Below, piece by piece: positions 10,564 to 22,696 of a stretch of DNA of 22,696 bases. Source of the DNA: Candidatus Aenigmatarchaeota archaeon. Lineage in GTDB: Archaea > Aenigmatarchaeota > Aenigmatarchaeia > Aenigmatarchaeales > JACQIB01. Position numbers and translations under genes: made by a program. The notes beneath the pieces were generated by a model that had not been told where the DNA came from, did no database searches, and saw only the letters and a program-made list of their open reading frames with translations. The stretch's first letter is position 1. The number at the start of each line of letters is the position of its first letter. The stretch lies in assembly GCA_046760225.1 (NCBI GenBank), contig JBHIDR010000008.1, positions 1 to 22,696 on the forward strand, in the 5' to 3' direction.

Positions 10564-10842
10564 GGTGTGCTGGACATAGCCCGTCTTCTGTGAAGCGAAT
10601 CAGCGCTGCAATTCGCGCTTCATCTGCATCGCTTTGCAACATTTGACTTAGCTGCCTACCCGCCCCTCTTTCATCATCAGGGCCTACTTGGCATTGCACC
10701 TTGCCGGCTTGTGCCGTGAGAAACCATGAAGCTTCTCTTCGACTGCCTTGACCTCTCGGCCATGCGCCTTGGGCGCGGCAAATGTATCGGTGGACGGAAC
10801 TTCCTCACTGCAGAGCAGCGGTGGTTGCGTGCCCAGCTCACC
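10564..10842 (-). ncRNA. rnpB: RNase P RNA
   Basis: CR-I GAGGAAGUUCCGUCCACC, CR-V ACAGAAGACGGGCUA (P4 pairing), P1 GGUGAGCUGGGCA/UGUCCAGCACACC, P2 GCAAC/GUUGC, P7 UUGCCG/CGGCAA. Confidence 0.93.
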
Positions 10843-13638: not shown

Positions 13639-13815
13639 TTAAGAGCCCATTGGGAAAAGCGCGTAGTCAAGGTAGAGCAAGCGATTGTTTGTGTCCCTTG
13701 CATATCTGAGATTACTACAATAAAGTGCAAGCTCGTCTTCAAGCTCTTTAATCTTCTTAAGTTTTTGGTCAAGGGTTCTAATATCATGGAGAAGTTTGGT
13801 TTCAACTTTGCACAT
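13639..13815 (-). CDS. Small hypothetical protein, 58 aa (not in the ORF track)
   Basis: My translation MCKVETKLLHDIRTLDQKLKKIKELEDELALYCSNLRYARDTNNRLLYLDYALFPMGS; fills the intergenic gap. Confidence 0.5.
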   Translation of the reverse strand: MCKVETKLLHDIRTLDQKLKKIKELEDELALYCSNLRYARDTNNRLLYLDYALFPMGS

Positions 13816-13861
13816 AACTAAGATTAGAACAGAAAAGGCTTATGCTGATATCTTTCTGTTT

Positions 13862-14155
13862 TCAGACCCTGTTCCAGATTGCTGCGAAAATCCAGCCTGT
13901 GATGTAGCCGCATATGAAGGCACCTATCAGGCCAATCACAGCTGCCGTTGCATCGAATGCCAGAACCGTGTACGGGTTAGTGAGCATGTGTACTCCTGAT
14001 ATCCATGCTATAAAAGCGTCTCCGATGCCTGCTGCCACGAACAGAACCCATCCTGCGTGCCATATTGCGAAAATCGCACCAAGGCTGAGTCCTGCCCTGT
14101 GCTCTTCAATCATCAGTCTTGCGGGTTTTCTTGCAGCTCTTCTTCTTTTTGCCAT
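13862..14155 (-). CDS. Small membrane protein
   Basis: 97 aa, hydrophobic segments with H..W and GY..GW.FA.IWN pattern. Confidence 0.7.
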   Translation of the reverse strand: MAKRRRAARKPARLMIEEHRAGLSLGAIFAIWHAGWVLFVAAGIGDAFIAWISGVHMLTNPYTVLAFDATAAVIGLIGAFICGYITGWIFAAIWNRV

Positions 14156-14194
14156 GAAAGTTATTCAGATTGGTTGTAAATAAAGAAATCGTTT

Positions 14195-14262
14195 TTCAGA
14201 TGCTGGGCGAATGTGCCTTCATTGCCCCGCATTTGGCTCGGCACATACTCTGGTAGCATCAA
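14195..14262 (-). ncRNA. K-turn / C/D-like hairpin in the 23S 3' trailer
   Basis: UUGAUGCU...AUGUGC CGA GCC-loop-GGC AAU GAA GGCACAU...AGCAUCUGA. Confidence 0.5.
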
Positions 14263-14294
14263 GCCAGTGGAGGAGAAATTTTAAGGGGGTCTAA
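14263..14294 (-). other. 23S pre-rRNA processing stem, 3' arm (BHB)
   Basis: UUAGACCC-CCUU-AAA-AUUUCUCCUCCACUGGC pairs with 22026-22057. Confidence 0.92.
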
Positions 14295-14509
14295 ACAAAA
14301 AGGCCGTTGGGGGCAGTGAGCTGAAATAGTCGCCGAAGCTTCTATCTTACACCCCTGCTCCATTAAACAGGTCGTCTCGCCTGTGGCCATTGCCTATTTT
14401 TCCCGGACGCTTCAGCCTTAGATGCCTTCAGGCTTTAACGCTTATGGCGTAGCTACCCGGCGTTACCATATGATAACCGGTGAACCAGAGGCCACGAGGG
14501 GGCGTTCCT

Positions 14510-15137
14510 TTTACGTGTGCCTACAAAAGATTAAATTTTACCTTGTTAGAGGTACCAACATGTTTCAAAAACTTTTCCACATTCCTCCATGTAAACACTA
14601 TCAATCTGAAAATATTGTTAGTGCCATTTTTATAGGGCCCATAGATTTTAGCTCTTATTTCCAACCTTTGTAAAATATATTGAGTGTATTCCAGAATTTT
14701 CTTGTCTTTTTGATACATTATTACTCTTATATCAGATTTCTTGTTTTTATTTTTGTATATAGAGCCTTCCGCATCAAAGAACCCCCTCAGGAAACTTATC
14801 TCATCACTTAATGTGTCAAATTTTACTTCATTGAGAGGTTTCATTAAAATGTTCAACACATCACTGTCTAGATTATTCTTGTGAATGTACACATAGATTA
14901 TATAAATTCCGTCAGGAGTTCTTAGAATCTTTGGGTTCTTTCCAGATACGTCCTTCAATATTGGAGCGATTGTATTTTCCAACCATTCCTTGTTCTTCTG
15001 CCTAACTACTATTCTTATCCTTTTGTTTAAATCGTATACGTGGCCATCCGCCAAAGATCCTTTCAAATAAGCCAGGGCTCCTTCCATGCACATTTATTTT
15101 GTTGGTTCCTTTAAATATTTTCTTAAGTAAGGCACAT
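14510..15137 (-). mobile_element. BHB intron 13 (after Ec 2661, sarcin-ricin loop), endonuclease-encoding
   Basis: UACG-AA^A-UGUGCCU...AGGCACA-CGUA-AA^A; splicing restores AGUACGAAAGGAAC. Confidence 0.9.
14521..15093 (-). CDS. LAGLIDADG homing endonuclease (two motifs)
   Basis: LAYLKGSLADGH and FLRGFFDAEGS. Confidence 0.9.
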   Translation of the reverse strand: MCMEGALAYLKGSLADGHVYDLNKRIRIVVRQKNKEWLENTIAPILKDVSGKNPKILRTPDGIYIIYVYIHKNNLDSDVLNILMKPLNEVKFDTLSDEISFLRGFFDAEGSIYKNKNKKSDIRVIMYQKDKKILEYTQYILQRLEIRAKIYGPYKNGTNNIFRLIVFTWRNVEKFLKHVGTSNKVKFNLL

Positions 15138-15296
15138 TTCGTACTTGCCCCTTCTTCGGGTCAGGCAACAACACCCTCAGTAGATATAAACCGTACTGTC
15201 TTTGTCGTTTGGTGTAGGACACCCAAAAAGCATAAGCGAGACAATTCTCTTAGGCTCATAAGCTACTCCTTGCGGGCATATCTAGCCTATGGGGCG

Positions 15297-15365
15297 GTTT
15301 CAGTCATTGCCTGAACTGCCTCGATATAAATTTATCATACCCTGGTATACCAACCTCATTGAAAT
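15297..15365 (-). ncRNA. Possible second intron-encoded C/D sRNA
   Basis: AAUGAGG-guide UUGGUAUACCAGGGU-AUGA...guide GCAGUUCAGGCA-AUGA; weak terminal stem UUUCA/UGAAA; degenerate C'. Confidence 0.4.
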
Positions 15366-15439
15366 GGCTACCAAACTCTGAAAGTTTCGGTCACAGCCAG
15401 AGCTAATGCTCTCTCAGTTGGATCATCTGAGGTATGACA

Positions 15440-15512
15440 GCAGGAATCGGATGTGACCTCATCTGTCATCTGCATAATGCATCATATTATCGACACTAAC
15501 CTCATACCCTGC
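15440..15512 (-). ncRNA. Intron-encoded box C/D sRNA
   Basis: Stem GCAGG/CCUGC, C UAUGAGG, D' AUGA, UGCA/UGCA hairpin, C' GAUGACA, D CCGA; D guide UGAGGUCACAU has 11/11 complementarity to 23S at 21905-21915. Confidence 0.75.
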
Positions 15513-15611
15513 TCGAAGACCACTATTGTTTGCGTCCCACTACCAAATCACGACGTACTGAACCCAGCTAATGTCCCCCTTTGATCAGTGAACACCTGCA
15601 CCCTTGGCTGC

Positions 15612-16414
15612 TTGCAGTTCAAGATAGGAAACCGGTATCAGGCAAGCCTCTTCAAAAATGCCATAATTTCTGGTTTGGTTTTGAATTTTTTCAATTCCAA
15701 TTGTTTTACTTCGTAACTTCTTACTGCGATATCAAGCACTTTATTCTTCTCGTATCCTTCCCAGTTCTTACTATCACCTGTTACCCTTACGCTTGGAATG
15801 AATCTTATTGTTCTCGCAAATTTTTTGATATCTTTTTTCTTTATTAATAAAACTTCATCATTTTCAGGTCTTATAATGGGCTCAAAACCGAGTTCTCTTA
15901 ACAGTGCATATACTTGTCTTCTTATTGTCGGATGCTTACAAGCAAATTTAACCCACTTTTTTATTTCCCATAATCCATATCTCTTATTCCAAACAACCCA
16001 TAAGCTAATTGAACCGTCGCAAGAAAACATTACTTGCAACATTCTAATCTTATGGATTTTAGGAAGTTTGAAAACAAACTTCGGTATTCTGGAATTTGGG
16101 AATTTCCCATTTTCCAGCTGTTTTGTTCTAAATGTGGGTATTAGCGTTAGCAAATATTCTCCTATTCTCTTGCTGGTAACCTTTGTTTTAATAACATCTC
16201 TGTATCTACTATCTCTGAATTGAGTAAATTTTACGTCACCAAAGATGTCCCTCATAATTTTCTTAAAAAGGCTGTGTAATTCTTTGGATTTACCTGTAAA
16301 TTCTATAACCCAGCCTCTACCTTTAGAGCTAACGCTTCCGTCTGTTAAAAGCAACCCTACTAACAAGGCTAAGTGACCCGATACCGGCGTGCTACGCACA
16401 TCCCCATCCTGAAT
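15612..16414 (-). mobile_element. BHB intron 11 (after Ec 2534), endonuclease-encoding
   Basis: GCAG-UA^A-UUCAGGAUGGGGA...UUCCUAUCUUGAA-CUGC-AA^G; second stem CCGGUAUCGGG/CCUGAUACCGG encloses the ORF. Confidence 0.9.
15638..16399 (-). CDS. LAGLIDADG homing endonuclease (probable GTG start inside the intron)
   Basis: LALLVGLLLTDGSV and MLQVMFSCDGSI motifs; G-rich SD-like sequence before GTG 16399. Confidence 0.82.
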   Translation of the reverse strand: MRSTPVSGHLALLVGLLLTDGSVSSKGRGWVIEFTGKSKELHSLFKKIMRDIFGDVKFTQFRDSRYRDVIKTKVTSKRIGEYLLTLIPTFRTKQLENGKFPNSRIPKFVFKLPKIHKIRMLQVMFSCDGSISLWVVWNKRYGLWEIKKWVKFACKHPTIRRQVYALLRELGFEPIIRPENDEVLLIKKKDIKKFARTIRFIPSVRVTGDSKNWEGYEKNKVLDIAVRSYEVKQLELKKFKTKPEIMAFLKRLA

Positions 16415-16440
16415 TACTGCACAGCCAGGAGGGGGGAAGC

Positions 16441-16474
16441 TTCTGCCTACAGTAAGTTTGCACCTAGCTGTAGT
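16441..16474 (-). other. BHB intron 10, 34 nt (after Ec 2508)
   Basis: CUGU-CG^A-CUACAG...CUGUAG-GCAG-AA^G. Confidence 0.88.
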
Positions 16475-16499
16475 CGACAGCGAGGTAGCAACGCGCGGG

Positions 16500-16745
16500 T
16501 TCTCGTTCCGAGAAGGGCTATAATTTCTCCCCAATTGGTTCCTCAAAAATAAATCTGACTTCTTGCTTTTATTTTGAAACGATTTTTTAAGTGACATAAA
16601 ATCACTGACCGAATATTTGTCGAAACTTCTTTATCTAAATTTCGTGTCTGGATAATATCAATGACCGAAATTGAGAATATGGAAGTTGAGACAGAGGTCA
16701 AGTGATTTTATGGAACCTATTGAAGAGAAAACCCCTCACCGAAAT
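16500..16745 (-). other. BHB intron 9, 246 nt (after Ec 2483); probable endonuclease-deleted remnant
   Basis: AUCG-AC^A-UUUCG...CGGAA-CGAG-AA^C (one mismatch in the central helix); splicing restores AUCGACCCCGC. Confidence 0.82.
16622..16690 (-). ncRNA. Conserved intron RNA motif, copy in intron 9
   Basis: UC-AACUUCC-AUAUUCUC-[stem]-UAGAUAA-AGAAGUU-UC. Confidence 0.75.
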
Positions 16746-16751
16746 GTCGAT

Positions 16752-16791
16752 TTGCTCATTGCTATCTTTCTGTTGAAAGATTTGAGCAATT
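16752..16791 (-). other. BHB intron 8, 40 nt (after Ec 2477)
   Basis: GCUC-CU^A-AUUGCU...AGCAAU-GAGC-AA^A. Confidence 0.88.
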
Positions 16792-16964
16792 AGGAGCTCT
16801 CGCCCGCCACGACTCTGTTATCCCCGGGGTAGCTTTTCTGAAGTCACCGGCATCCATCAAGGACAAACTGGTGTATCGTTAGCCCACGCTTTCGCGGCTG
16901 GATCCTTTACTGTGCAGAATCCAGTCAGGCCTCCTTTTGCGCTTACACTCTACTCCTGATTTCT

Positions 16965-16995
16965 TTCTGGAAGCAATAGCTATGACTAATGCTAT
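16965..16995 (-). other. BHB intron 7, 31 nt (after Ec 2306)
   Basis: CUGG-UC^A-UAGCA...UGCUU-CCAG-AA^A. Confidence 0.85.
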
Positions 16996-17014
16996 GACCA
17001 GGATGAGGAAACCT

Positions 17015-17053
17015 ATGCCCGAATATCTCCCAGACTAATCTGATAGATACTCT
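17015..17053 (-). other. BHB intron 6, 39 nt (after Ec 2287)
   Basis: GCCC-AA^A-GAGUAUCU...AGAUAUUC-GGGC-AU^A. Confidence 0.9.
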
Positions 17054-17280
17054 TTGGGCGCCCTTGATCTCCTGTCAAGGGCGTACCGCCCCAGCCAAGC
17101 TGTCCACCAACCGGTGTCCCCCCGAGTCGAGGGTTAGCCATACAGTCACAAAACGGCAGTGTTACATTGGCGCCTATCCAACGCCCGAAAACGTTGGCTT
17201 AGCAGCTCCTGCCTACACTATGGAAACGTAACCATACAGCAACGACAGGCTACAGCAGAGCTTTCCGTTGAGGTAAATAG

Positions 17281-17988
17281 TCAAAGAAGCGACAACCGCT
17301 GTTCAGTTGTTAGTTTAGGCGGGCAATTGCCCGTCTTTTCAAAAAGATAAATTTTTGACAAATGTTTTGGATTGAAAAAACCAATTTTATACATCCAATC
17401 GTTCAACATCTTCTTTCCATACATCCTTATCCTGAATTCTTTGAAACCTCTTCTTGAGGTCTTCTCAAGAGCAGGTTTAAAGCCCAGCAGTTTAAGCTGA
17501 GTCTGCACAAAATCTGCCAGTACTTCATTATTTGTGAACATCTCTATTCTAGGTTCGCAGTGTAGACCTTTTCTATTCTTTTTGAATGAAACAGAAAAAT
17601 CTGCATCTGCAAGCCCTCGTATGAAGTGTGGTATAAGACTTCCTTGAATCCATATCGGTACGTGCTTCAATTTCAATTTATTACCAACAGGAATTCCAAT
17701 GTTAACTTTCTTTTGTACGACTTCTTTGGAATTCAGAACAGCTATTAATGTACGTTCTCCCTTCTTCAAATAAACCCTTGGTCTTTTCCTATAAAGTCTT
17801 TCTATGATGTCTGGAACAATATTGGAATAAAATTCCTTATCGTTCTCTACATCACCAGAAAATTCCACACGGAAAATCCCATGATTTTTATTTATGTAAA
17901 GACAACCATCACCCAAATGTAAACCAGTTTCATATGCAAATAATTCCTTCTTTTTAAGTTTTTTGATATGAAAATTTTTAATTTTCAT
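17281..17988 (-). CDS. LAGLIDADG homing endonuclease
   Basis: FAYETGLHLGDGC and FIRGLADADFS. Confidence 0.9.
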   Translation of the reverse strand: MKIKNFHIKKLKKKELFAYETGLHLGDGCLYINKNHGIFRVEFSGDVENDKEFYSNIVPDIIERLYRKRPRVYLKKGERTLIAVLNSKEVVQKKVNIGIPVGNKLKLKHVPIWIQGSLIPHFIRGLADADFSVSFKKNRKGLHCEPRIEMFTNNEVLADFVQTQLKLLGFKPALEKTSRRGFKEFRIRMYGKKMLNDWMYKIGFFNPKHLSKIYLFEKTGNCPPKLTTEQRLSLL

Positions 17989-18002
17989 GAGGACATTTAG
18001 GT

Positions 18003-18056
18003 GAAGCTGACTTATCTAACTTTCTATGAAATAGAAAGGGAGAATATGTCAGCTGA
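18003..18056 (-). ncRNA. Conserved intron RNA motif, copy in intron 5
   Basis: UC-AGCUGAC-AUAUUCUC-[stem]-UAGAUAA-GUCAGCU-UC. Confidence 0.75.
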
Positions 18057-18219
18057 ACTCGCCTCTTCTCATTCTACTTAACCCCATCCACGGGGTCTTC
18101 TCTTCCCTCTGAGGGTCTGTGGCCTATTCACCACAAAAGCAGGTTCGCCGGGGTCCGACCCGGGACAGTGGGAAAGTCGTTAATCCATTCATGCGGGCCG
18201 ACAATTAATCGGCAAGGGA

Positions 18220-18251
18220 TTTCGTTGTAAGGTCTGGGAAGACCTTGACAT
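18220..18251 (-). other. BHB intron 4, 32 nt (after Ec 1938)
   Basis: GCGU-AA^A-UGU(C)AAGGUC...GACCUUACA-ACGA-AA^U (one central mismatch). Confidence 0.82.
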
Positions 18252-18539
18252 TTACGCTACCTTAAGACGGTCAGAGTTACCGCCGCCGTTTACGGGGGCT
18301 TGGCCCGGTTGAAACCGGGTTTAACACACCCGCACTGGGCAGGACTCACCAACTATACTTAGGATTTCTCCCTAGCAGTCAGCTACGTTTTTGTTAAACA
18401 GTCGCCTTCCCCTGGTTACTGAGACCTACCTGATCTCCAGATAGGCAAGGGTTCTACCAAAGATACCCCTCTAATTTGCCGAGTTCCCTGGATCGGTGTA
18501 TCCCGTCACGCCGTCGCCTTTTCAGCAAGAGTCACCTGT

Positions 18540-18569
18540 ATCCTGAGATATTAGTGAAGCTAATATCTT
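18540..18569 (-). other. BHB intron 3, 30 nt (after Ec 1615)
   Basis: ACUG-AC^A-AGAUAUUAG...CUAAUAUCU-CAGG-AU^A; splicing restores AACUGACACAGGUG. Confidence 0.85.
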
Positions 18570-19033
18570 GTCAGTTCTTGATACGGACACAGCCAATCCG
18601 ACCGGTTTCATTTTCATGGTCTCCTGGAGTCACCCGAACTCCCGTATACACAGAAGCTATTAGCGCCTTCACCCGGTTCTCTCTTTGACAGAACTTCCCG
18701 GGTTTCAGCGGTTAACTTACGTCGGACTATCCTGAAGCGTCTGAAACCGGACTTGCGTTGCCGCGTGTATGGCCGTGGTGCAGGAATATTAACCTGCTTC
18801 CCTTTCCCGAGCTTCAGTTAAGGGCTCAGTTAGGATCGACTAACTCCCGGCTGAACGACATTGCCGGGAAAATCTTGCTCTTCTGGCGGTCGGGGTTCCA
18901 ACCCGACTTTGCTGCTACTACCAGCAGGATTCTCATTTCCGGGCGGTCCACACCTGCTTACGCAGATGCTTCTGTCCGCGCGGAACGCCTTCCTACGCTA
19001 TGACTTTCGTCATCTGGGGTCTCGGTAGCAAGC

Positions 19034-20053
19034 TTACTCCCGTCCATTTTCACCGCGCCGCCCCTCGACGGGTCCGCTGTTTCGTGGGCGATGAATCAAC
19101 TTTAATAAAACTTCCAAATTCCTTTTCTTTGGGTGTGCAGACCCAATTAAAAAACAAAATTTTTCTATGTCATCTTTATTGCGAATACTTAATGTCCATC
19201 TTGGATATGTGCTGCCTTTGTCAGGCATCGTTACAGATAAGTTCGACTTAATCTTCAAGTCCAATAAAATTTTTTTCATATCTTGCAAAGGCGGACATGC
19301 TGTTCGGCTATCCCAGCTCTGATAAAATCTTATTGCCATATTCTGCTTCATGGCCTTCTTCAAAGACATATCAGCTAGGTTGCCACATCCGCCTTCTGCG
19401 TCAAAAAACCCTTTGATGTAAGCTTTTTTCAGTCTTTCTGGAGCCTTCAATACGATTGATGGGGTTCGCCATTTCGTTTGCTTACCAAATGGATGATTGC
19501 AAACGACATGTAAAAATGTAGCCATAATTCTTGATTCGACTCGTAAACCCCATACATCACCCCTAAAAAGCGTGTATTGTGGCTTTTGATTAAAGTTCTC
19601 AAATACGGGTTTGATTTCTGTTTCCAGCCAAGATTTGTGCTTGGCAGAAACCATCACACTGTATCTGTGCTTTCCTGACGATGATATGAAGTGGCTTACA
19701 CTCCCATCTCGTAATGCTCCTAGAAAGTATGCCAGCCTCTCATCAAAAGTTTTGGGCAGAATGACATGTTCGGGGCTTCCAAGCAGCCCGATAAACTCGA
19801 ACTGCCTGAAAGCTTCGTCTAGTAGCTTTGCATTCGAAGTCCTAGCGACATCTTTCACAAAGGCTATCGTCGGCAAAGACGACCATGCCCGTACTGAAAG
19901 ATAGCGTTCAAGACTTTTTACGGAATATCCAAACTTTTTTGCAAAGCCTCTGTATGTCATGCCATTATCATCCCAATAAGCTCTGACAAGCTTCTTTACT
20001 CCACCCAGACGAAAATCGCCTGGTAGTTTATTGAGATAATTTGATAGATGCAC
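19034..20053 (-). CDS. HTH + LAGLIDADG homing endonuclease; stop codon lies in the downstream exon
   Basis: HTH-like GMTYRGFAKKFGYSVKSLERY, LAYFLGALRDGSV, YIKGFFDAEGG. Confidence 0.87.
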   Translation of the reverse strand: MHLSNYLNKLPGDFRLGGVKKLVRAYWDDNGMTYRGFAKKFGYSVKSLERYLSVRAWSSLPTIAFVKDVARTSNAKLLDEAFRQFEFIGLLGSPEHVILPKTFDERLAYFLGALRDGSVSHFISSSGKHRYSVMVSAKHKSWLETEIKPVFENFNQKPQYTLFRGDVWGLRVESRIMATFLHVVCNHPFGKQTKWRTPSIVLKAPERLKKAYIKGFFDAEGGCGNLADMSLKKAMKQNMAIRFYQSWDSRTACPPLQDMKKILLDLKIKSNLSVTMPDKGSTYPRWTLSIRNKDDIEKFCFLIGSAHPKKRNLEVLLKLIHRPRNSGPVEGRRGENGRE

Positions 20054-20099
20054 ATACCCTTAATGGGTCCGCTAGTATTTATAGTCGACTCCTTCGCCT
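19081..20099 (-). mobile_element. BHB intron 2 (after Ec 1095), endonuclease-encoding
   Basis: CGCG-UA^A-GGCGA...UCGCC-CACG-AA^A (one central mismatch; boundaries +/-1); splicing restores GCGUAACAGC. Confidence 0.85.
20076..20083 (-). promoter_or_regulatory. Putative intron-internal TATA box for the endonuclease
   Basis: TATAAATA about 22 nt upstream of the GTG at 20053. Confidence 0.5.
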
Positions 20100-20661
20100 T
20101 ACGCGTTGATTATCGGATGGCTGCTTCTGAGCCTACCGCCCCGCTGTTTTTGGAACGGCACCAGCTTTGTGACTTAGCTTGCATTTGGGGACCTTAACCC
20201 CAGGCTAGCTTGTTCGCTTTTCGGATACCTAGCTTACCCAGGTACCCTCACTCCCACCTTCTATGGCGCTTGCAGATTATTAGTTTGACAGGAAAGACAG
20301 GGATTTCTCCCCACAACTTCCCAATCAGTGCTTTACCCCACAAGCTACCTCTGGTGAGGCTGTGCTGAGACACATTTCGGAAGGAACCAGCTATTAGGAC
20401 TCTCGATTGGCTTTTCACCCCTATGCCCAGGTCACCCGATCACTTTGAGATAGAACCGGTAACAGGCCTCCACGGAGCTTTCGCCCCGCTTCACCTTGCC
20501 CAGGCATAGATCGAGTCCTTTCGGGTCTTATCCCCGTGACTCCTCGCGCTTTCACACGACGCCCCTGGCCCGAAGGCTGCGGGCTTTTTGCTTTCGCTAT
20601 GGCTACGCGCCGAAGCGCTTAACCTTGCCACGAGAATAAACTCCCTGCCACGTGATTCTCG

Positions 20662-21291
20662 TTAAAGAAGCGCTCTCAGTTTCTTCGCCTTTATAGGATG
20701 TTCAAATCCTATTTTTTCAACAAAAATAGAAGCTTGTTTTTTTCCATTAATATGTATCATTGAAAAATCATTATATTCATAGAGGTTCGATTTTATTCCT
20801 TCTAAAGAAAGAACCTCAAAAACGTCTTTTGCTAACCCATGATTATGGACTTTCATTTGAATTCTCAAATATCCGTTCTTATGGTGAGAATCCTTCATTT
20901 CGATAACCGAACCTTCGGCATCAAAAAGTCCACATAAAAGAGAACATCTTAATTTTGAGTCCTCTTTGACGGTCTTCGGTACTCTTACTATCCTGGACTT
21001 ATTACCCGAAGGTATTCCAAGATGCTTAAATATTGTCCATATTTTCTTGGAATGCACATAAGCTACAAAGGAGTTATTGTAGCTATCAAAGTATATTTTT
21101 GGCATCCTCTTGAAGACCTTTGAAAATTTTCTAGCAAATATTTCTTGTATAAATTCTTTATTTTCTTCTACTGCCCTCACAAGATATTTACTGGAAAGAT
21201 TTCCGTCTCCAATTATGAATCCCATCAGATAATTCAAATCCTCATTATTTTTCAGAATTTCAGCTTCTTTATTGAAAATTTGAATTTTCAT
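20662..21291 (-). CDS. LAGLIDADG homing endonuclease
   Basis: LNYLMGFIIGDGN and LLCGLFDAEGS. Confidence 0.92.
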   Translation of the reverse strand: MKIQIFNKEAEILKNNEDLNYLMGFIIGDGNLSSKYLVRAVEENKEFIQEIFARKFSKVFKRMPKIYFDSYNNSFVAYVHSKKIWTIFKHLGIPSGNKSRIVRVPKTVKEDSKLRCSLLCGLFDAEGSVIEMKDSHHKNGYLRIQMKVHNHGLAKDVFEVLSLEGIKSNLYEYNDFSMIHINGKKQASIFVEKIGFEHPIKAKKLRALL

Positions 21292-21305
21292 GGGTCTTCT
21301 TAGGC

Positions 21306-21372
21306 GAAGCTTCCTTATCTACTTTTCGCGTCTCCCTACGTCCAAGACCGAAAAGGAGAATATGGAAACTGA
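21306..21372 (-). ncRNA. Conserved intron RNA motif, copy in intron 1
   Basis: UC-AGUUUCC-AUAUUCUC-[stem]-UAGAUAA-GGAAGCU-UC. Confidence 0.75.
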
Positions 21373-22025
21373 GTCATCACACTTGCTCTAATTTCGAAAC
21401 GGACACCATGACACTGTAAGCCTTTCCTCCTACACACCCATTTCTGGATTTTCGTTCGGAAAGGCACCTTTCGCGCCATGGCTGACTATAACTGACTGGC
21501 TTCAAGCTCTTTTCATCTTCTATGAAGAATGCTTTTCAGCTTTCTGTCACCATACTAGTGCGCTATCGGACTCCAGACATATTTAGGGTTGGGTGTTGAT
21601 GCCACCCACCTTCCTACAGCATATCCGAGCTGCAGTACTCTTTTCCCGCAATCAGCTTTCTGTCCTACCCCTACAGGGCTATCACCTTCTCGGGCACGCC
21701 TTTCCAGGCGACTTCGAGTCGGACAGCGAAGCTGTACACGGGTTCCACATATCCACTGCATTTCTGCAGCGATTCGGTTTGCCCTGTTCCGCCTTCACTC
21801 GCCGTTACTAACGGAATCGAATTTCTTTCTCTTCCTCCGCTTAATAAGATGCTTCAATCCAGCGGGTTCCCTTTCTCCGAAGAGAATGACAGCCGAAGCT
21901 GCCGTGAGGTCACATTAGGTAATTCCTGGTTCTAGGGCTGCGTGCGCCTCGCCAGGACTTATCGCAGCTTGCTACGACCTTCTTCAGTGCTGGAGCCAAG
22001 CTATCCACCAGGCAGTGTGTGGTGC

Positions 22026-22057
22026 TTAGACCCTATCCTCATTTCTCCTCCACTGGC
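22026..22057 (-). other. 23S pre-rRNA processing stem, 5' arm (BHB)
   Basis: GCCAGUGGAGGAGAAAU-GAGG-AUA-GGGUCUAA; with 14263-14294 forms 17 bp / 3-nt bulge / 4 bp / 3-nt bulge / 8 bp. Confidence 0.92.
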
Positions 22058-22080
22058 ATCATCGTGATAATTTCACTACA

Positions 22081-22150
22081 GAAGCTCACGTGACCGTCCT
22101 GATTTCATTGCCCGAAGGCTCAAAAGGTGTTCCACGCAGTCCATCGCTTC
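22081..22150 (-). ncRNA. Box C/D double-guide sRNA (predicted Um2552 and Cm1920)
   Basis: Stem GAAGC/GCUUC, D' UUGA, GCC-UUCG-GGC, C' AAUGAAA, D GUGA; guides GAACACCU and AGGACGGUCA are antisense to 23S. Confidence 0.8.
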
Positions 22151-22198
22151 CTTTTCTACCCTTCCACCACAACCGGCATCTGTTGCGATGTGCACTTT

Positions 22199-22234
22199 GC
22201 TGCTCACGAGACAGTTCCCTTAGTTCATTGCAGC
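22199..22234 (-). ncRNA. Single-guide box C/D sRNA (predicted Cm2601)
   Basis: GCUGC-AAUGAAC-UAAGGGAACUGUCUC-GUGA-GCAGC; ACUGUCUC is antisense to spliced GAGACAGU. Confidence 0.7.
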
Positions 22235-22240
22235 TTTTTC

Positions 22241-22302
22241 GCCATCATATACCCCTGGGCCTTTCATTGCTCTTGCTCAGGCATTGGCTTTATTCATCTG
22301 GC
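22241..22302 (-). ncRNA. Box C/D sRNA, target not identified in the window
   Basis: GCCA-GAUGAAU-AAAGCCAAUGC-CUGA-GCAAGAGC-AAUGAAA-GGCCCAGGGGUAU-AUGA-UGGC. Confidence 0.7.
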
Positions 22303-22487
22303 ACGCCATGTAGGACATGACCATGATTGAATGGATTTTGATAAACCCATTTGAGGTGGTTTGTTTGGTCTTTCGACCAGAAGGAGCGTCATCTCGTCGC
22401 CGATTCAGCTAGTTTTCCATTGAGTCTTCAGTTGCTGTACATACAAAGCCACCATTTTCCTGTAAGTATAATACTGTTTTCTGAAGG

Positions 22488-22495
22488 TATTTAAA
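22488..22495 (-). promoter_or_regulatory. Putative TATA box for the pre-23S transcript (possibly shared with the divergent ORF)
   Basis: TTTAAATA on the minus strand; the palindromic TTTAAA is also about 23 nt before ATG 22518. Confidence 0.55.
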
Positions 22496-22517
22496 GCTTA
22501 CGATACTTATTGGGGAT

Positions 22518-22696
22518 ATGAAGATTCTAAAACCAATCAGGGAACAGGCAAGGTTCATAGATAATTTCTACCGCCACATGAAGAACACGGGAGAATGGTA
22601 TATGGGAGGTGGCTGGGGCATATCAGGATTTGCCGGGAAGCTGCAGAGAAACCACAAGGGCCCTGACATGTGCATGCCGGCTGTACTTAAGGAAGA
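22518..22696 (+). CDS. Partial ORF, possible ANT(2'')/LnuA-like nucleotidyltransferase-fold protein
   Basis: MKILKPIREQ...WYMGGGWGISGFAGKLQRNHKGPD resembles W..GGW...G...R.H.DxD, but the first Asp is missing; truncated by the window end. Confidence 0.4.
   Translation, partial: MKILKPIREQARFIDNFYRHMKNTGEWYMGGGWGISGFAGKLQRNHKGPDMCMPAVLKE

Follow-up and report, generated by a model that had tools for sequence, protein, structure and literature searches.

A 23S rRNA gene in fourteen exons

We analyzed a stretch of 22,696 nucleotides (nt), referred to below as the window, which makes up positions 1 to 22,696 of contig JBHIDR010000008.1 in the metagenome-assembled genome (~0.85 Mb; GenBank assembly GCA_046760225.1) of a DPANN archaeon, Candidatus Aenigmatarchaeota archaeon. 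Its minus strand carries a 23S rRNA gene, placed at 22032..14298 by Rfam, blastn and MAFFT, in which 14 exons totaling 2924 nt are separated by 13 inserts that we interpret as introns of the bulge-helix-bulge (BHB) type and that take up 4811 of the 7735 nt (62%). A sequence-only reading of the window had proposed 13 introns making up about 62% of a gene that runs to ~14298, five of them with LAGLIDADG open reading frames (ORFs), six of 30-40 nt, and two larger ones without ORFs (246 and 347 nt). All of these figures were recovered, as were the 13 insertion sites it had named when the gene was aligned with the 23S rRNA of Escherichia coli and with relatives. The introns and the shortest exon are listed below in the order of transcription, with sites in E. 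coli numbering (Ec), the number of paired positions in the four-base central helix of the splice motif and, for some, the length in base pairs (bp) of the inner stem.

21392..20656, minus strand: I1, 737 nt, after ~Ec572; central helix 4/4, inner stem 6 bp
20099..19081, minus strand: I2, 1019 nt, after Ec1095 in the loop of the GTPase-associated center; central helix 3/4
18569..18540, minus strand: I3, mini-intron of 30 nt after Ec1615; central helix 3/4, inner stem 8-9 bp
18251..18220, minus strand: I4, mini-intron of 32 nt after Ec1938; central helix 3/4
18087..17263, minus strand: I5, 825 nt, after Ec2070; central helix 4/4
17053..17015, minus strand: I6, mini-intron of 39 nt after Ec2287; central helix 4/4, inner stem 8 bp
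16995..16965, minus strand: I7, mini-intron of 31 nt after Ec2306; central helix 4/4, inner stem beginning past one mismatch
16791..16752, minus strand: I8, mini-intron of 40 nt after Ec2477; central helix 4/4, inner stem 6 bp
16746..16751, minus strand: micro-exon of 6 nt (Ec2478-2483), four bases of which belong to the central helix of I9
16745..16500, minus strand: I9, 246 nt, ORF-less, after Ec2483; central helix 3/4
16474..16441, minus strand: I10, mini-intron of 34 nt after Ec2508; central helix 4/4
16414..15612, minus strand: I11, 803 nt, after Ec2534; central helix 4/4, inner stem at least 8 bp
15548..15202, minus strand: I12, 347 nt, ORF-less, after Ec2597; central helix 4/4
15137..14510, minus strand: I13, 628 nt, after Ec2661 inside the sarcin-ricin loop; central helix 4/4, inner stem 7 bp

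The exons measure 640, 556, 511, 288, 132, 209, 19, 173, 6, 25, 26, 63, 64, and 212 nt. Site numbers were calibrated with landmark positions and are good to ~1-2 nt; compared with the reference, the E. coli 23S copy in the alignment has 3 extra nt at some point between positions 1620 and 1906. Two demands set the intron boundaries, namely that the uninterrupted length and sequence seen in relatives be restored and that the splice motif be formed. In the alignment, removal of the introns gives sequence that is uninterrupted in relatives at all 13 junctions, as had been claimed for conserved rRNA sequence in general. For I3, an alternative 28-nt register with a 4/4 helix was rejected, its product being 2 nt too long; the 30-nt register restores the conserved length, and a contig of a relative from an RNA run omits exactly 30 nt. 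Intron-free relatives carry the same six bases of the micro-exon without interruption. At the I13 junction, the spliced sarcin-ricin tetraloop (15138..15143 joined to 14507..14509, exons 13 and 14) reads GAAA, with A at Ec2661, where E. coli has GAGA; the same GAAA occurs in all three relatives inspected (G001, G010, and G018; such labels denote other genomes of the order, G000 being the one studied here), and I13 sits exactly within the tetraloop.

The match of the Rfam model LSU_rRNA_archaea for the large-subunit (LSU) rRNA covers only 22032..16724 on the minus strand, with the whole model squeezed in. The end at 16724 is an artefact, because three analyses continue to ~14300: blastn against the LSU loci of five relatives gives colinear matches down to ~14300, a MAFFT E-INS-i alignment with the E. 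coli 23S rRNA and three relatives extends the gene to ~14298, and a separate Rfam search of 14250..16850 assigns 14302..14540 to model positions 2725-2973. More generally, in intron-rich genes cmscan fits the entire LSU model into the 5′ two thirds of the sequence. Its match stops 2.4 kb early here and more than 1 kb early in relatives G016 and G012 (L006 and L007), and automatic rRNA annotation in these lineages is therefore systematically wrong at the 3′ end. In practice, Rfam/Infernal truncates such genes and misplaces their 3′ domain, and primers and probes for the 23S and 16S rRNAs of these lineages will fail. The assembly (851 kb in 83 contigs, 83% complete) contains a single LSU locus.

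Five introns contain a long reading frame with a match to the Pfam family LAGLIDADG_3:

20662..21291, minus strand: frame of I1, 209 amino acids (aa), E 1.2e-10; wholly within the intron
19034..20053, minus strand: frame of I2, 339 aa, E 1.7e-5; GTG start, runs 47 nt into exon 3
17281..17988, minus strand: frame of I5, 235 aa, E 7.2e-5
15638..16414, minus strand: frame of I11, 258 codons, E 1.2e-9; open from the first base of the intron
14521..15093, minus strand: frame of I13, 190 aa, E 2.4e-21

All five (190-339 aa) score above the family cut-off of 22.5 bits, at 23.4-76.2 bits, and two LAGLIDADG-like motifs are visible in each translation, which makes them intact putative LAGLIDADG homing endonucleases. 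Their pairwise identity is 21-30%, where similarity can be detected, and thus they represent separate endonuclease lineages and not recent copies. The frame of I2 has no stop inside the intron. That of I11 lacks an ATG ahead of its first LAGLIDADG motif, but it can be read on upstream of the intron, across two exons, I10 and part of I9, as far as an ATG at 16597. These two proteins might be made from unspliced precursor or from unusual starts, or else their genes are beginning to decay.

Splice motif, enzymes and proposed mechanism

BHB motifs were scored with the geometry of the canonical tRNA intron at 37/38, in which each strand contributes a helix, four paired bases and a 3-nt bulge that is cut after its second base. 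An insert passed when at least three of the four central pairs and at least six of eight pairs of the inner, intron-intron stem could form. The central helix is complete in nine introns and has three of four pairs in I2, I3, I4, and I9, in agreement with the earlier description of 3-nt bulges around a 4-nt helix with one mismatch in four cases. The inner stem has at least five of eight pairs in every intron and at least six in 12 of the 13. Twelve of the 13 real pairs of 5′ and 3′ sites therefore pass, compared with 3 of 156 decoys that combine a 5′ site with the 3′ site of the wrong intron and none of 208 pairs in which the 3′ site was shifted by 1-8 nt. The termini, which play no part in the scoring, are equally uniform: every intron starts with A, 11 end in AA and two in AU. 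A scan that required at least two contiguous pairs in the outer helix was abandoned after inspection of the folds, as it missed most introns or placed them in the wrong register. The core motif with its controls, together with the lack of any match to group I or group II introns in the searches described below, bears out the assignment of the inserts to the BHB type.

As a positive control for the geometry we took the processing stem of the gene itself. Leader and trailer pair into a long stem (-117 kcal/mol, RNAduplex) that contains a strict BHB motif. Between helices of 17 bp and 11 bp, it has a 4-bp helix bordered by two 3-nt bulges, one on each strand, and its handedness is that of the intron motifs:

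22023..22057, minus strand: leader strand of the pre-23S processing stem; 17-nt helix, 4-nt strand at 22040..22037, 3-nt bulge at 22036..22034, 11-nt helix
14263..14297, minus strand: trailer strand of the stem; 11-nt helix, 4-nt strand at 14286..14283, bulge AAA at 14282..14280, 17-nt helix

The boundaries find further support in two RNA runs from other habitats, X5 (wetland) and X8 (sediment), which hold 5-7% of the words of the stretch, from conserved exon parts only and 90-95% alike. Contigs of relatives from RNA runs skip I1 (737 nt), I2 (1019 nt), I3 (30 nt), and I4 (32 nt) at exactly the predicted boundaries. As these contigs are 90-95% alike, they represent intron-free relatives and speak for the boundaries, not for splicing in this organism; the zero depth of the introns in X5 and X8 was not counted as evidence.

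A profile search of the genome found the enzymes that such introns call for. The two genes of the family of the tRNA splicing endonuclease EndA (PF01974, 85 and 66 bits) lie ~1 kb apart, and RtcB is also encoded (PF01139, 497 bits), as the sequence-only reading had supposed for the machinery:

L015:1297-1788 and L015:2332-2862 (contig C2 of G000): EndA paralogs, with a nitroreductase-like gene between them

Subunit 1 (176 aa) has its closest match in the Nanoarchaeum equitans catalytic EndA subunit (3IEY_A, E 4e-35), keeps the Tyr and the His, and has a Lys-rich insert of seven residues directly before the His, as does the N. equitans subunit. Subunit 2 (163 aa) is His-less. The accessible text of PMC5829648 states that relaxed motifs are cut only by EndAs with lineage-specific loops, a C-terminal “L3” loop being the DPANN form. 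The enzyme found here resembles both the heteromeric N. equitans EndA (3IEY) and, as far as that text describes them, the “L3 loop” EndAs of DPANN in its Tyr/His subunit, Lys-rich insert and His-less partner; unlike the N. equitans enzyme, both of its subunits have Ala in place of the Lys of the catalytic triad, and a third gene separates the two subunit genes. The EndA that had been proposed for typing thus proved to be of the N. equitans-like two-subunit kind with the Lys-rich insert, the kind reported to accept relaxed motifs, and a relaxed-specificity EndA is a reasonable prediction for this organism.

These elements can be combined into a mechanism. In the precursor, the last six exon bases (four paired, two bulged) would pair with the 3′ end of the intron, and the two ends of each intron would form a stem of 5-10 bp adjoining the central helix. 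The two-subunit EndA would then cut after the second base of each 3-nt bulge, and RtcB would ligate the exons and probably circularize the introns. The same EndA would cut the strict BHB of the leader/trailer stem and thereby release pre-23S rRNA. The five mutually divergent LAGLIDADG genes presumably each placed their intron at its own conserved rRNA site, and the six introns of 30-40 nt would be bare splicing cores, most likely left after deletion of an endonuclease gene. The 2597 intron would stand apart as an old intron, retained throughout the order, with a box C/D-like guide RNA whose spacer is antisense to the P-loop.

We consider it very likely that the locus is a single 23S rRNA gene whose 13 BHB-type introns are spliced by proteins in the manner proposed. 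The following points weigh against this view. Both EndA paralogs have Ala at the position of a Methanocaldococcus jannaschii Lys that we take to be the third residue of the catalytic triad (RKK there, RAV and RAN here), and the N. equitans catalytic subunit retains Lys at that position. The RNA in X5 and X8 derives from relatives only, and excision, ligation and the fate of the 6-nt exon are inferred. With a genome that is 83% complete, there is room for an unassembled intron-free copy of the 23S rRNA gene. No ORF remnant was detected in I9 or I12 by tblastn with the five endonucleases, which gave only chance matches (best E 0.12). Finally, the outer exon-exon helix of the intron motifs is nearly missing, with 0-2 contiguous pairs, short of the strict hBHBh′ form. 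The motifs are relaxed and HBh′-like, and their cleavage therefore depends on an enzyme that tolerates such motifs. In the accessible text of PMC5829648, relaxed motifs of the HBh′-like form are still classed as BHB introns.

Relatives, intron turnover and alternative explanations

The order is represented in our collection by 42 genomes, 19 of which, this one included, have both ends of the 23S rRNA gene on one contig. The gene measures 3060-6714 nt in the 18 relatives, so that the gene studied here (7723 nt in this comparison) is the longest of the 19. When the relatives were aligned to the spliced sequence, each gene showed between 1 and 11 inserts of 14 nt or more, which add up to 89; 69 of these passed the BHB test, and among the 69, 62 start with A and 51 end in AA or AU. 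Multi-intron 23S rRNA genes are thus a trait of the lineage, of which this gene is the extreme in number and in length, and the very high intron load that had been proposed is indeed the highest of the 19. A relative from the same genus, with exons 83-94% identical, has only two introns; it lacks 11 of the 13 inserts, and the flanks are unchanged. Intron turnover is fast.

The relatives also bear on the origin of the short introns. At position 572, versions of 737, 721, 280, 193, 167, and 144 nt occur; at 2534, 803 and 53 nt; at 2661, 628, 221, and 31 nt; and long and short versions were likewise found at 1095 and 2070. Matching termini were checked at 572 and at 2483, where the intron has 246 nt here and 62 nt in a genome of the same family, and at the I4 site a genome of this family has a mini-intron whose ends match. 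In addition, a contig from the DNA run X3 connects 17280 with 18073 through five letters, which corresponds to I5 cut to ~38 nt with both ends kept. The depth of this contig is 7.9, compared with 8.6 for the full-length form, and it may come from a co-existing strain without the endonuclease gene. The long and short versions and the ~38-nt I5 fit the loss of endonuclease genes leaving the core, and such loss is the likely source of the bare splicing cores.

The sequence-only reading had gone further and seen the full decay series of homing endonucleases in this one gene, with two ORF-less introns as intermediates. The series finds support in the long and short versions at the same sites and in the shortened I5, but not in I9 and I12, with their lack of ORF remnants. 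As for the intermediates, I9 is ORF-less and has a 62-nt version in the same-family genome, in keeping with the proposal, but I12 is no intermediate: it is present in all 18 relatives and carries a conserved structured RNA.

We think it unlikely, while giving it some weight, that the mini-introns are not decayed homing introns at all and arose by reverse splicing, by transposition of small BHB cores or by local duplication, an explanation that concerns only the step of mini-intron origin. The spread of BHB introns without endonucleases has reportedly been proposed for tRNA genes of Thermoproteales. No ORF-bearing intron was found among the 19 genomes at any of the six mini-intron sites (1615, 1938, 2287, 2306, 2477, and 2508), and the ORF-less introns, as noted, hold no remnants. 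However, the 13 introns share no sequence apart from one 22-nt match (E 0.003), so that no spreading mini-element is apparent, and relatives have both long and 30-60-nt versions at 572, 780, 803, 2054, 2255, and 2534/2661. The matching ends at 572 and 2483 and the X3 contig in which I5 is cut to its core also favor decay.

Quite improbable, in our view, is that the inserts, whether only those of 30-40 nt or all of them, stay in the mature rRNA as expansion hairpins or are cut without ligation to give a fragmented rRNA. Splicing itself is an inference, short hairpins on the ribosome surface are tolerable in principle, and the outer BHB helix is missing. Against this, the sites lie in universally conserved, buried sequence (1095, 1938, 2477/2483, 2508, and the sarcin-ricin loop at 2661), and the inserts share the splice-core signature of the ORF-bearing introns, with a 5′ A and a 3′ AA or AU. 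Fragmentation would also leave a free 6-nt piece, RtcB is present, and the same-genus relative without 11 of the 13 inserts has unchanged flanks.

Still less probable is an assembly chimera, or a decaying pseudogene with a working 23S rRNA gene elsewhere. The sequence does come from a metagenome assembly with 83% completeness in 83 contigs, and contigs with intron-free junctions occur at higher depth in the same samples; one such joint, 19079 to 20099, skips 1019 nt. Both the sequence and the depth of these contigs are different, and they fit other organisms. In four DNA runs from a single hydrothermal-vent study, 84-98% of the stretch is present. In contigs of two further samples of that study, which are not flagged as the likely source of the assembly, both junctions of at least eight of the 13 introns (I1, I2, I5, I6, I7, I10, I11, and I13) are covered with zero differences; among the matches listed, zero-difference contigs cross one junction of I9 and of I12, and I3 is spanned by a contig with five differences. 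Zero-difference contigs of run X3 span I5 and I13. In both DNA runs all 30 bins have non-zero depth, and the read mapping that had been suggested as a check on chimerism therefore gave full cover, with independent contigs agreeing at the junctions. The genome has a single LSU locus, and the spliced exons keep every conserved block along with 83-94% identity to the same-genus relative.

Least credible of all, and close to dismissed, is self-splicing of the larger inserts as introns of group I or group II: the accessible text of PMC6125680 places group I introns, some with LAGLIDADG genes, at LSU positions 1923, 1931, 2500, and 2593 in Woese-, Pace-, and Micrarchaeota, the Rfam group I model is insensitive, and some inserts of relatives at 1923/1931 fit the BHB motif poorly, but Rfam models, as distinct from the sensitive subgroup models IA3 and IB4 of that study, gave no group I or II match, whether 13800..22696 was searched at E<=0.01 or 14250..16850 and I12 at E<=10, a U precedes only one of the 13 introns and no intron has a terminal G, the listed group I positions are occupied by none of them, a junction at 2593 fails to restore the conserved exon where the BHB junction at 2597 does so, and every large intron has a 4/4 or 3/4 BHB core with an inner stem of 5-10 bp. 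Several relatives (L005, L006, L023, L024, and L030) have inserts of 200-750 nt at Ec1923/1931 and second inserts near 2446-2449 that fit the BHB motif poorly, with no initial A and a weak inner stem. Such inserts, which lie at sites known for group I introns, may belong to group I.

The 16S rRNA gene, on another contig of this genome (C1, ~42900..46861, L031), is heavily interrupted as well and extends over ~3.9 kb. At least nine BHB-like inserts (33-820 nt) were counted in it, each with a 4/4 core, an initial A and a terminal AA or AU, and together they enclose three ORFs (188-270 aa). Beyond reference position ~1330 the alignment is unreliable, and that part was left out of the count.

BHB introns in rRNA genes, their LAGLIDADG genes and short ORF-less forms have long been known from Crenarchaeota, where the endonucleases I-DmoI, I-PorI, and I-ApeI are encoded in rRNA introns. 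The introns described here resemble those of the crenarchaeal Thermoproteales and Desulfurococcales in their conserved sites, their BHB core and their content of either a LAGLIDADG gene or a short ORF-less sequence. They differ in their DPANN host, in the number of 13 in one 23S rRNA gene and at least nine in the 16S rRNA gene, and in the 6-nt exon. A life cycle of homing followed by degeneration is discussed in the accessible text of PMC4496867, where Thermoproteales are called the richest archaeal group. The DPANN LSU introns of Nawrocki, Jones and Eddy (2018, PMC6125680) are similar in that several introns, some with homing genes, are concentrated in domains IV and V; in the accessible part of that study they are group I introns at 1923, 1931, 2500, and 2593 with BHB introns merely co-occurring, whereas all 13 here are of the BHB type and lie at other sites. 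The rRNA insertion sequences of bacteria of the candidate phyla radiation (PMC11270868, as far as its accessible text goes) are alike in being numerous, in occurring in small-genome symbionts and in carrying some homing endonucleases, but have a bacterial host and other routes of removal. In our literature search, beyond whose reach most subscription papers lay, we found no description of a 23S rRNA gene with this intron load or of a 6-nt rRNA exon. The gene is an extreme case of the known BHB-interrupted rRNA genes.

With 14 exons, one of them of 6 nt, in a genome of <1 Mb, this gene represents a limit case for protein-dependent splicing in an essential RNA, with introns inside the peptidyl-transferase ring and the sarcin-ricin loop. 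The same-genus pair with 13 and two introns offers a natural system for the gain of archaeal introns, for the loss of their endonucleases and for their precise deletion.

The 2597 intron and its candidate guide RNA

The intron at 2597 behaves differently from the others. It is found in 18 of 18 aligned relatives, where it has 151-396 nt and never an ORF. Its splice-site stem covaries strongly across the 19 genomes, and two inner helices covary too. We conclude that I12 carries a conserved functional RNA that travels with the 23S precursor. Three elements are of importance here:

15334..15438, minus strand: module A, covarying helices around a K-turn-like hairpin at ~15413..15394 (GA / 3-nt bulge / GA)
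15253..15311, minus strand: module B, a box C/D-like RNA of 59 nt with a terminal stem, C- and D-like boxes, an antisense spacer and an internal hairpin
17085..17093, minus strand: P-loop (Ec2249-2257) within exon 6, perfectly complementary to the module B spacer over 9 Watson-Crick bp

Module B occurs in 14 of the 19 introns at 2597, with a length of 42-72 nt. Its layout comprises a 3-bp terminal stem, C- and D-like boxes with an AUGA core, a spacer of 12 nt (13 nt here) and an internal hairpin, which in some genomes is flanked by D′- and C′-like boxes. The terminal stem and the C6:D1 pair are paired in 56 of 56 cells, and all four pairs show compensatory changes; none of 500 shuffles reached the observed score. 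The consensus of archaeal box C/D RNAs is RUGAUGA for box C and CUGA for box D, and the boxes of module B share only the AUGA core. Module A is present in nearly all introns at 2597 and has no recognizable guide or D box; it was rejected as a C/D RNA for want of a D-like box on its 3′ side.

The spacer contains a block of 9 nt that is invariant but for one C/U change, which keeps the pairing as G-U, and its sole perfect Watson-Crick match in the 7.9-kb gene is the P-loop at Ec2249-2257. In the copies with a D′-like box (G016, G040, G010, G017, and G012), the spacer has 12 nt and the fifth base upstream of D′ pairs with G2251; in the copy studied here, the spacer has 13 nt and a hairpin takes the place of D′ at the same distance. 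Two other guide assignments were discarded. A 14-nt version of the P-loop guide has no match with at least 12 of 14 pairs, only the core of 9-10 nt being paired, and another conserved part of module B, just upstream of its D-like box, has its best exon complement at Ec2434-2443, with a central mismatch and many equal chance matches. Rfam searches of 14250..16850 and of I12 alone at E<=10 gave no family match for the I12 RNA; the hits to SNORD38, snoR116, GlsR14, and microRNA and long noncoding RNA families were chance-level and far below the gathering scores.

A covariance model of module B found exactly one copy in 26 of the 42 genomes of the order. In 21 of these, the copy lies a few hundred bases upstream of the 3′-terminal exon, consistent with a place in the intron. 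Four genomes whose intron lacks the module have it on the same strand in the 23S leader (G010, G012, and G017) or trailer (G027), and in G009 a copy was found but no LSU gene. Among the 27 genomes with a detectable 3′ exon, 25 have module B, and the other two have a contig edge or a degenerate copy at this point. Fibrillarin, Nop5, and L7Ae are all encoded in the genome.

According to the accessible text of PMC11542601, the P-loop G that corresponds to Gm2251 is 2′-O-methylated from E. coli to humans, across the three domains, and this methylation is RNA-guided in Haloarcula marismortui, plants, and yeast. The part of PMC4644070 that is accessible lists the same G as a predicted C/D target in three archaea. 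We lean, with some reserve, toward the view that the 2597 intron was domesticated and that across the order it, or another part of the 23S precursor, harbors a single-copy box C/D-type guide for Gm2251. The C/D guide in the intron of the euryarchaeal pre-tRNA-Trp, the intronic small nucleolar RNAs (snoRNAs) of eukaryotes and the C/D guides for the P-loop G would be the closest counterparts, sharing with module B a guide that comes from an intron of the RNA on which it may act. The differences are that the host intron of module B lies in 23S rRNA, that its boxes keep only the AUGA core, that D′/C′ is often a plain hairpin, and that module B moves among intron, leader and trailer in relatives. 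Our literature search returned no description of a C/D RNA inside an archaeal rRNA intron. If the proposed function is correct, module B would be an archaeal guide encoded by an rRNA intron, a prokaryotic counterpart of the intron-encoded snoRNAs and a testable archaeal parallel to those of eukaryotes. It would then explain why one intron is retained while the others turn over quickly, and would link intron retention to ribosome modification.

Elsewhere in the window, the archaeal RNase P RNA (Rfam RF00373, 113 bits) is found at 10565..10841 on the minus strand, 3.5 kb downstream of the 23S rRNA gene and on the same strand.

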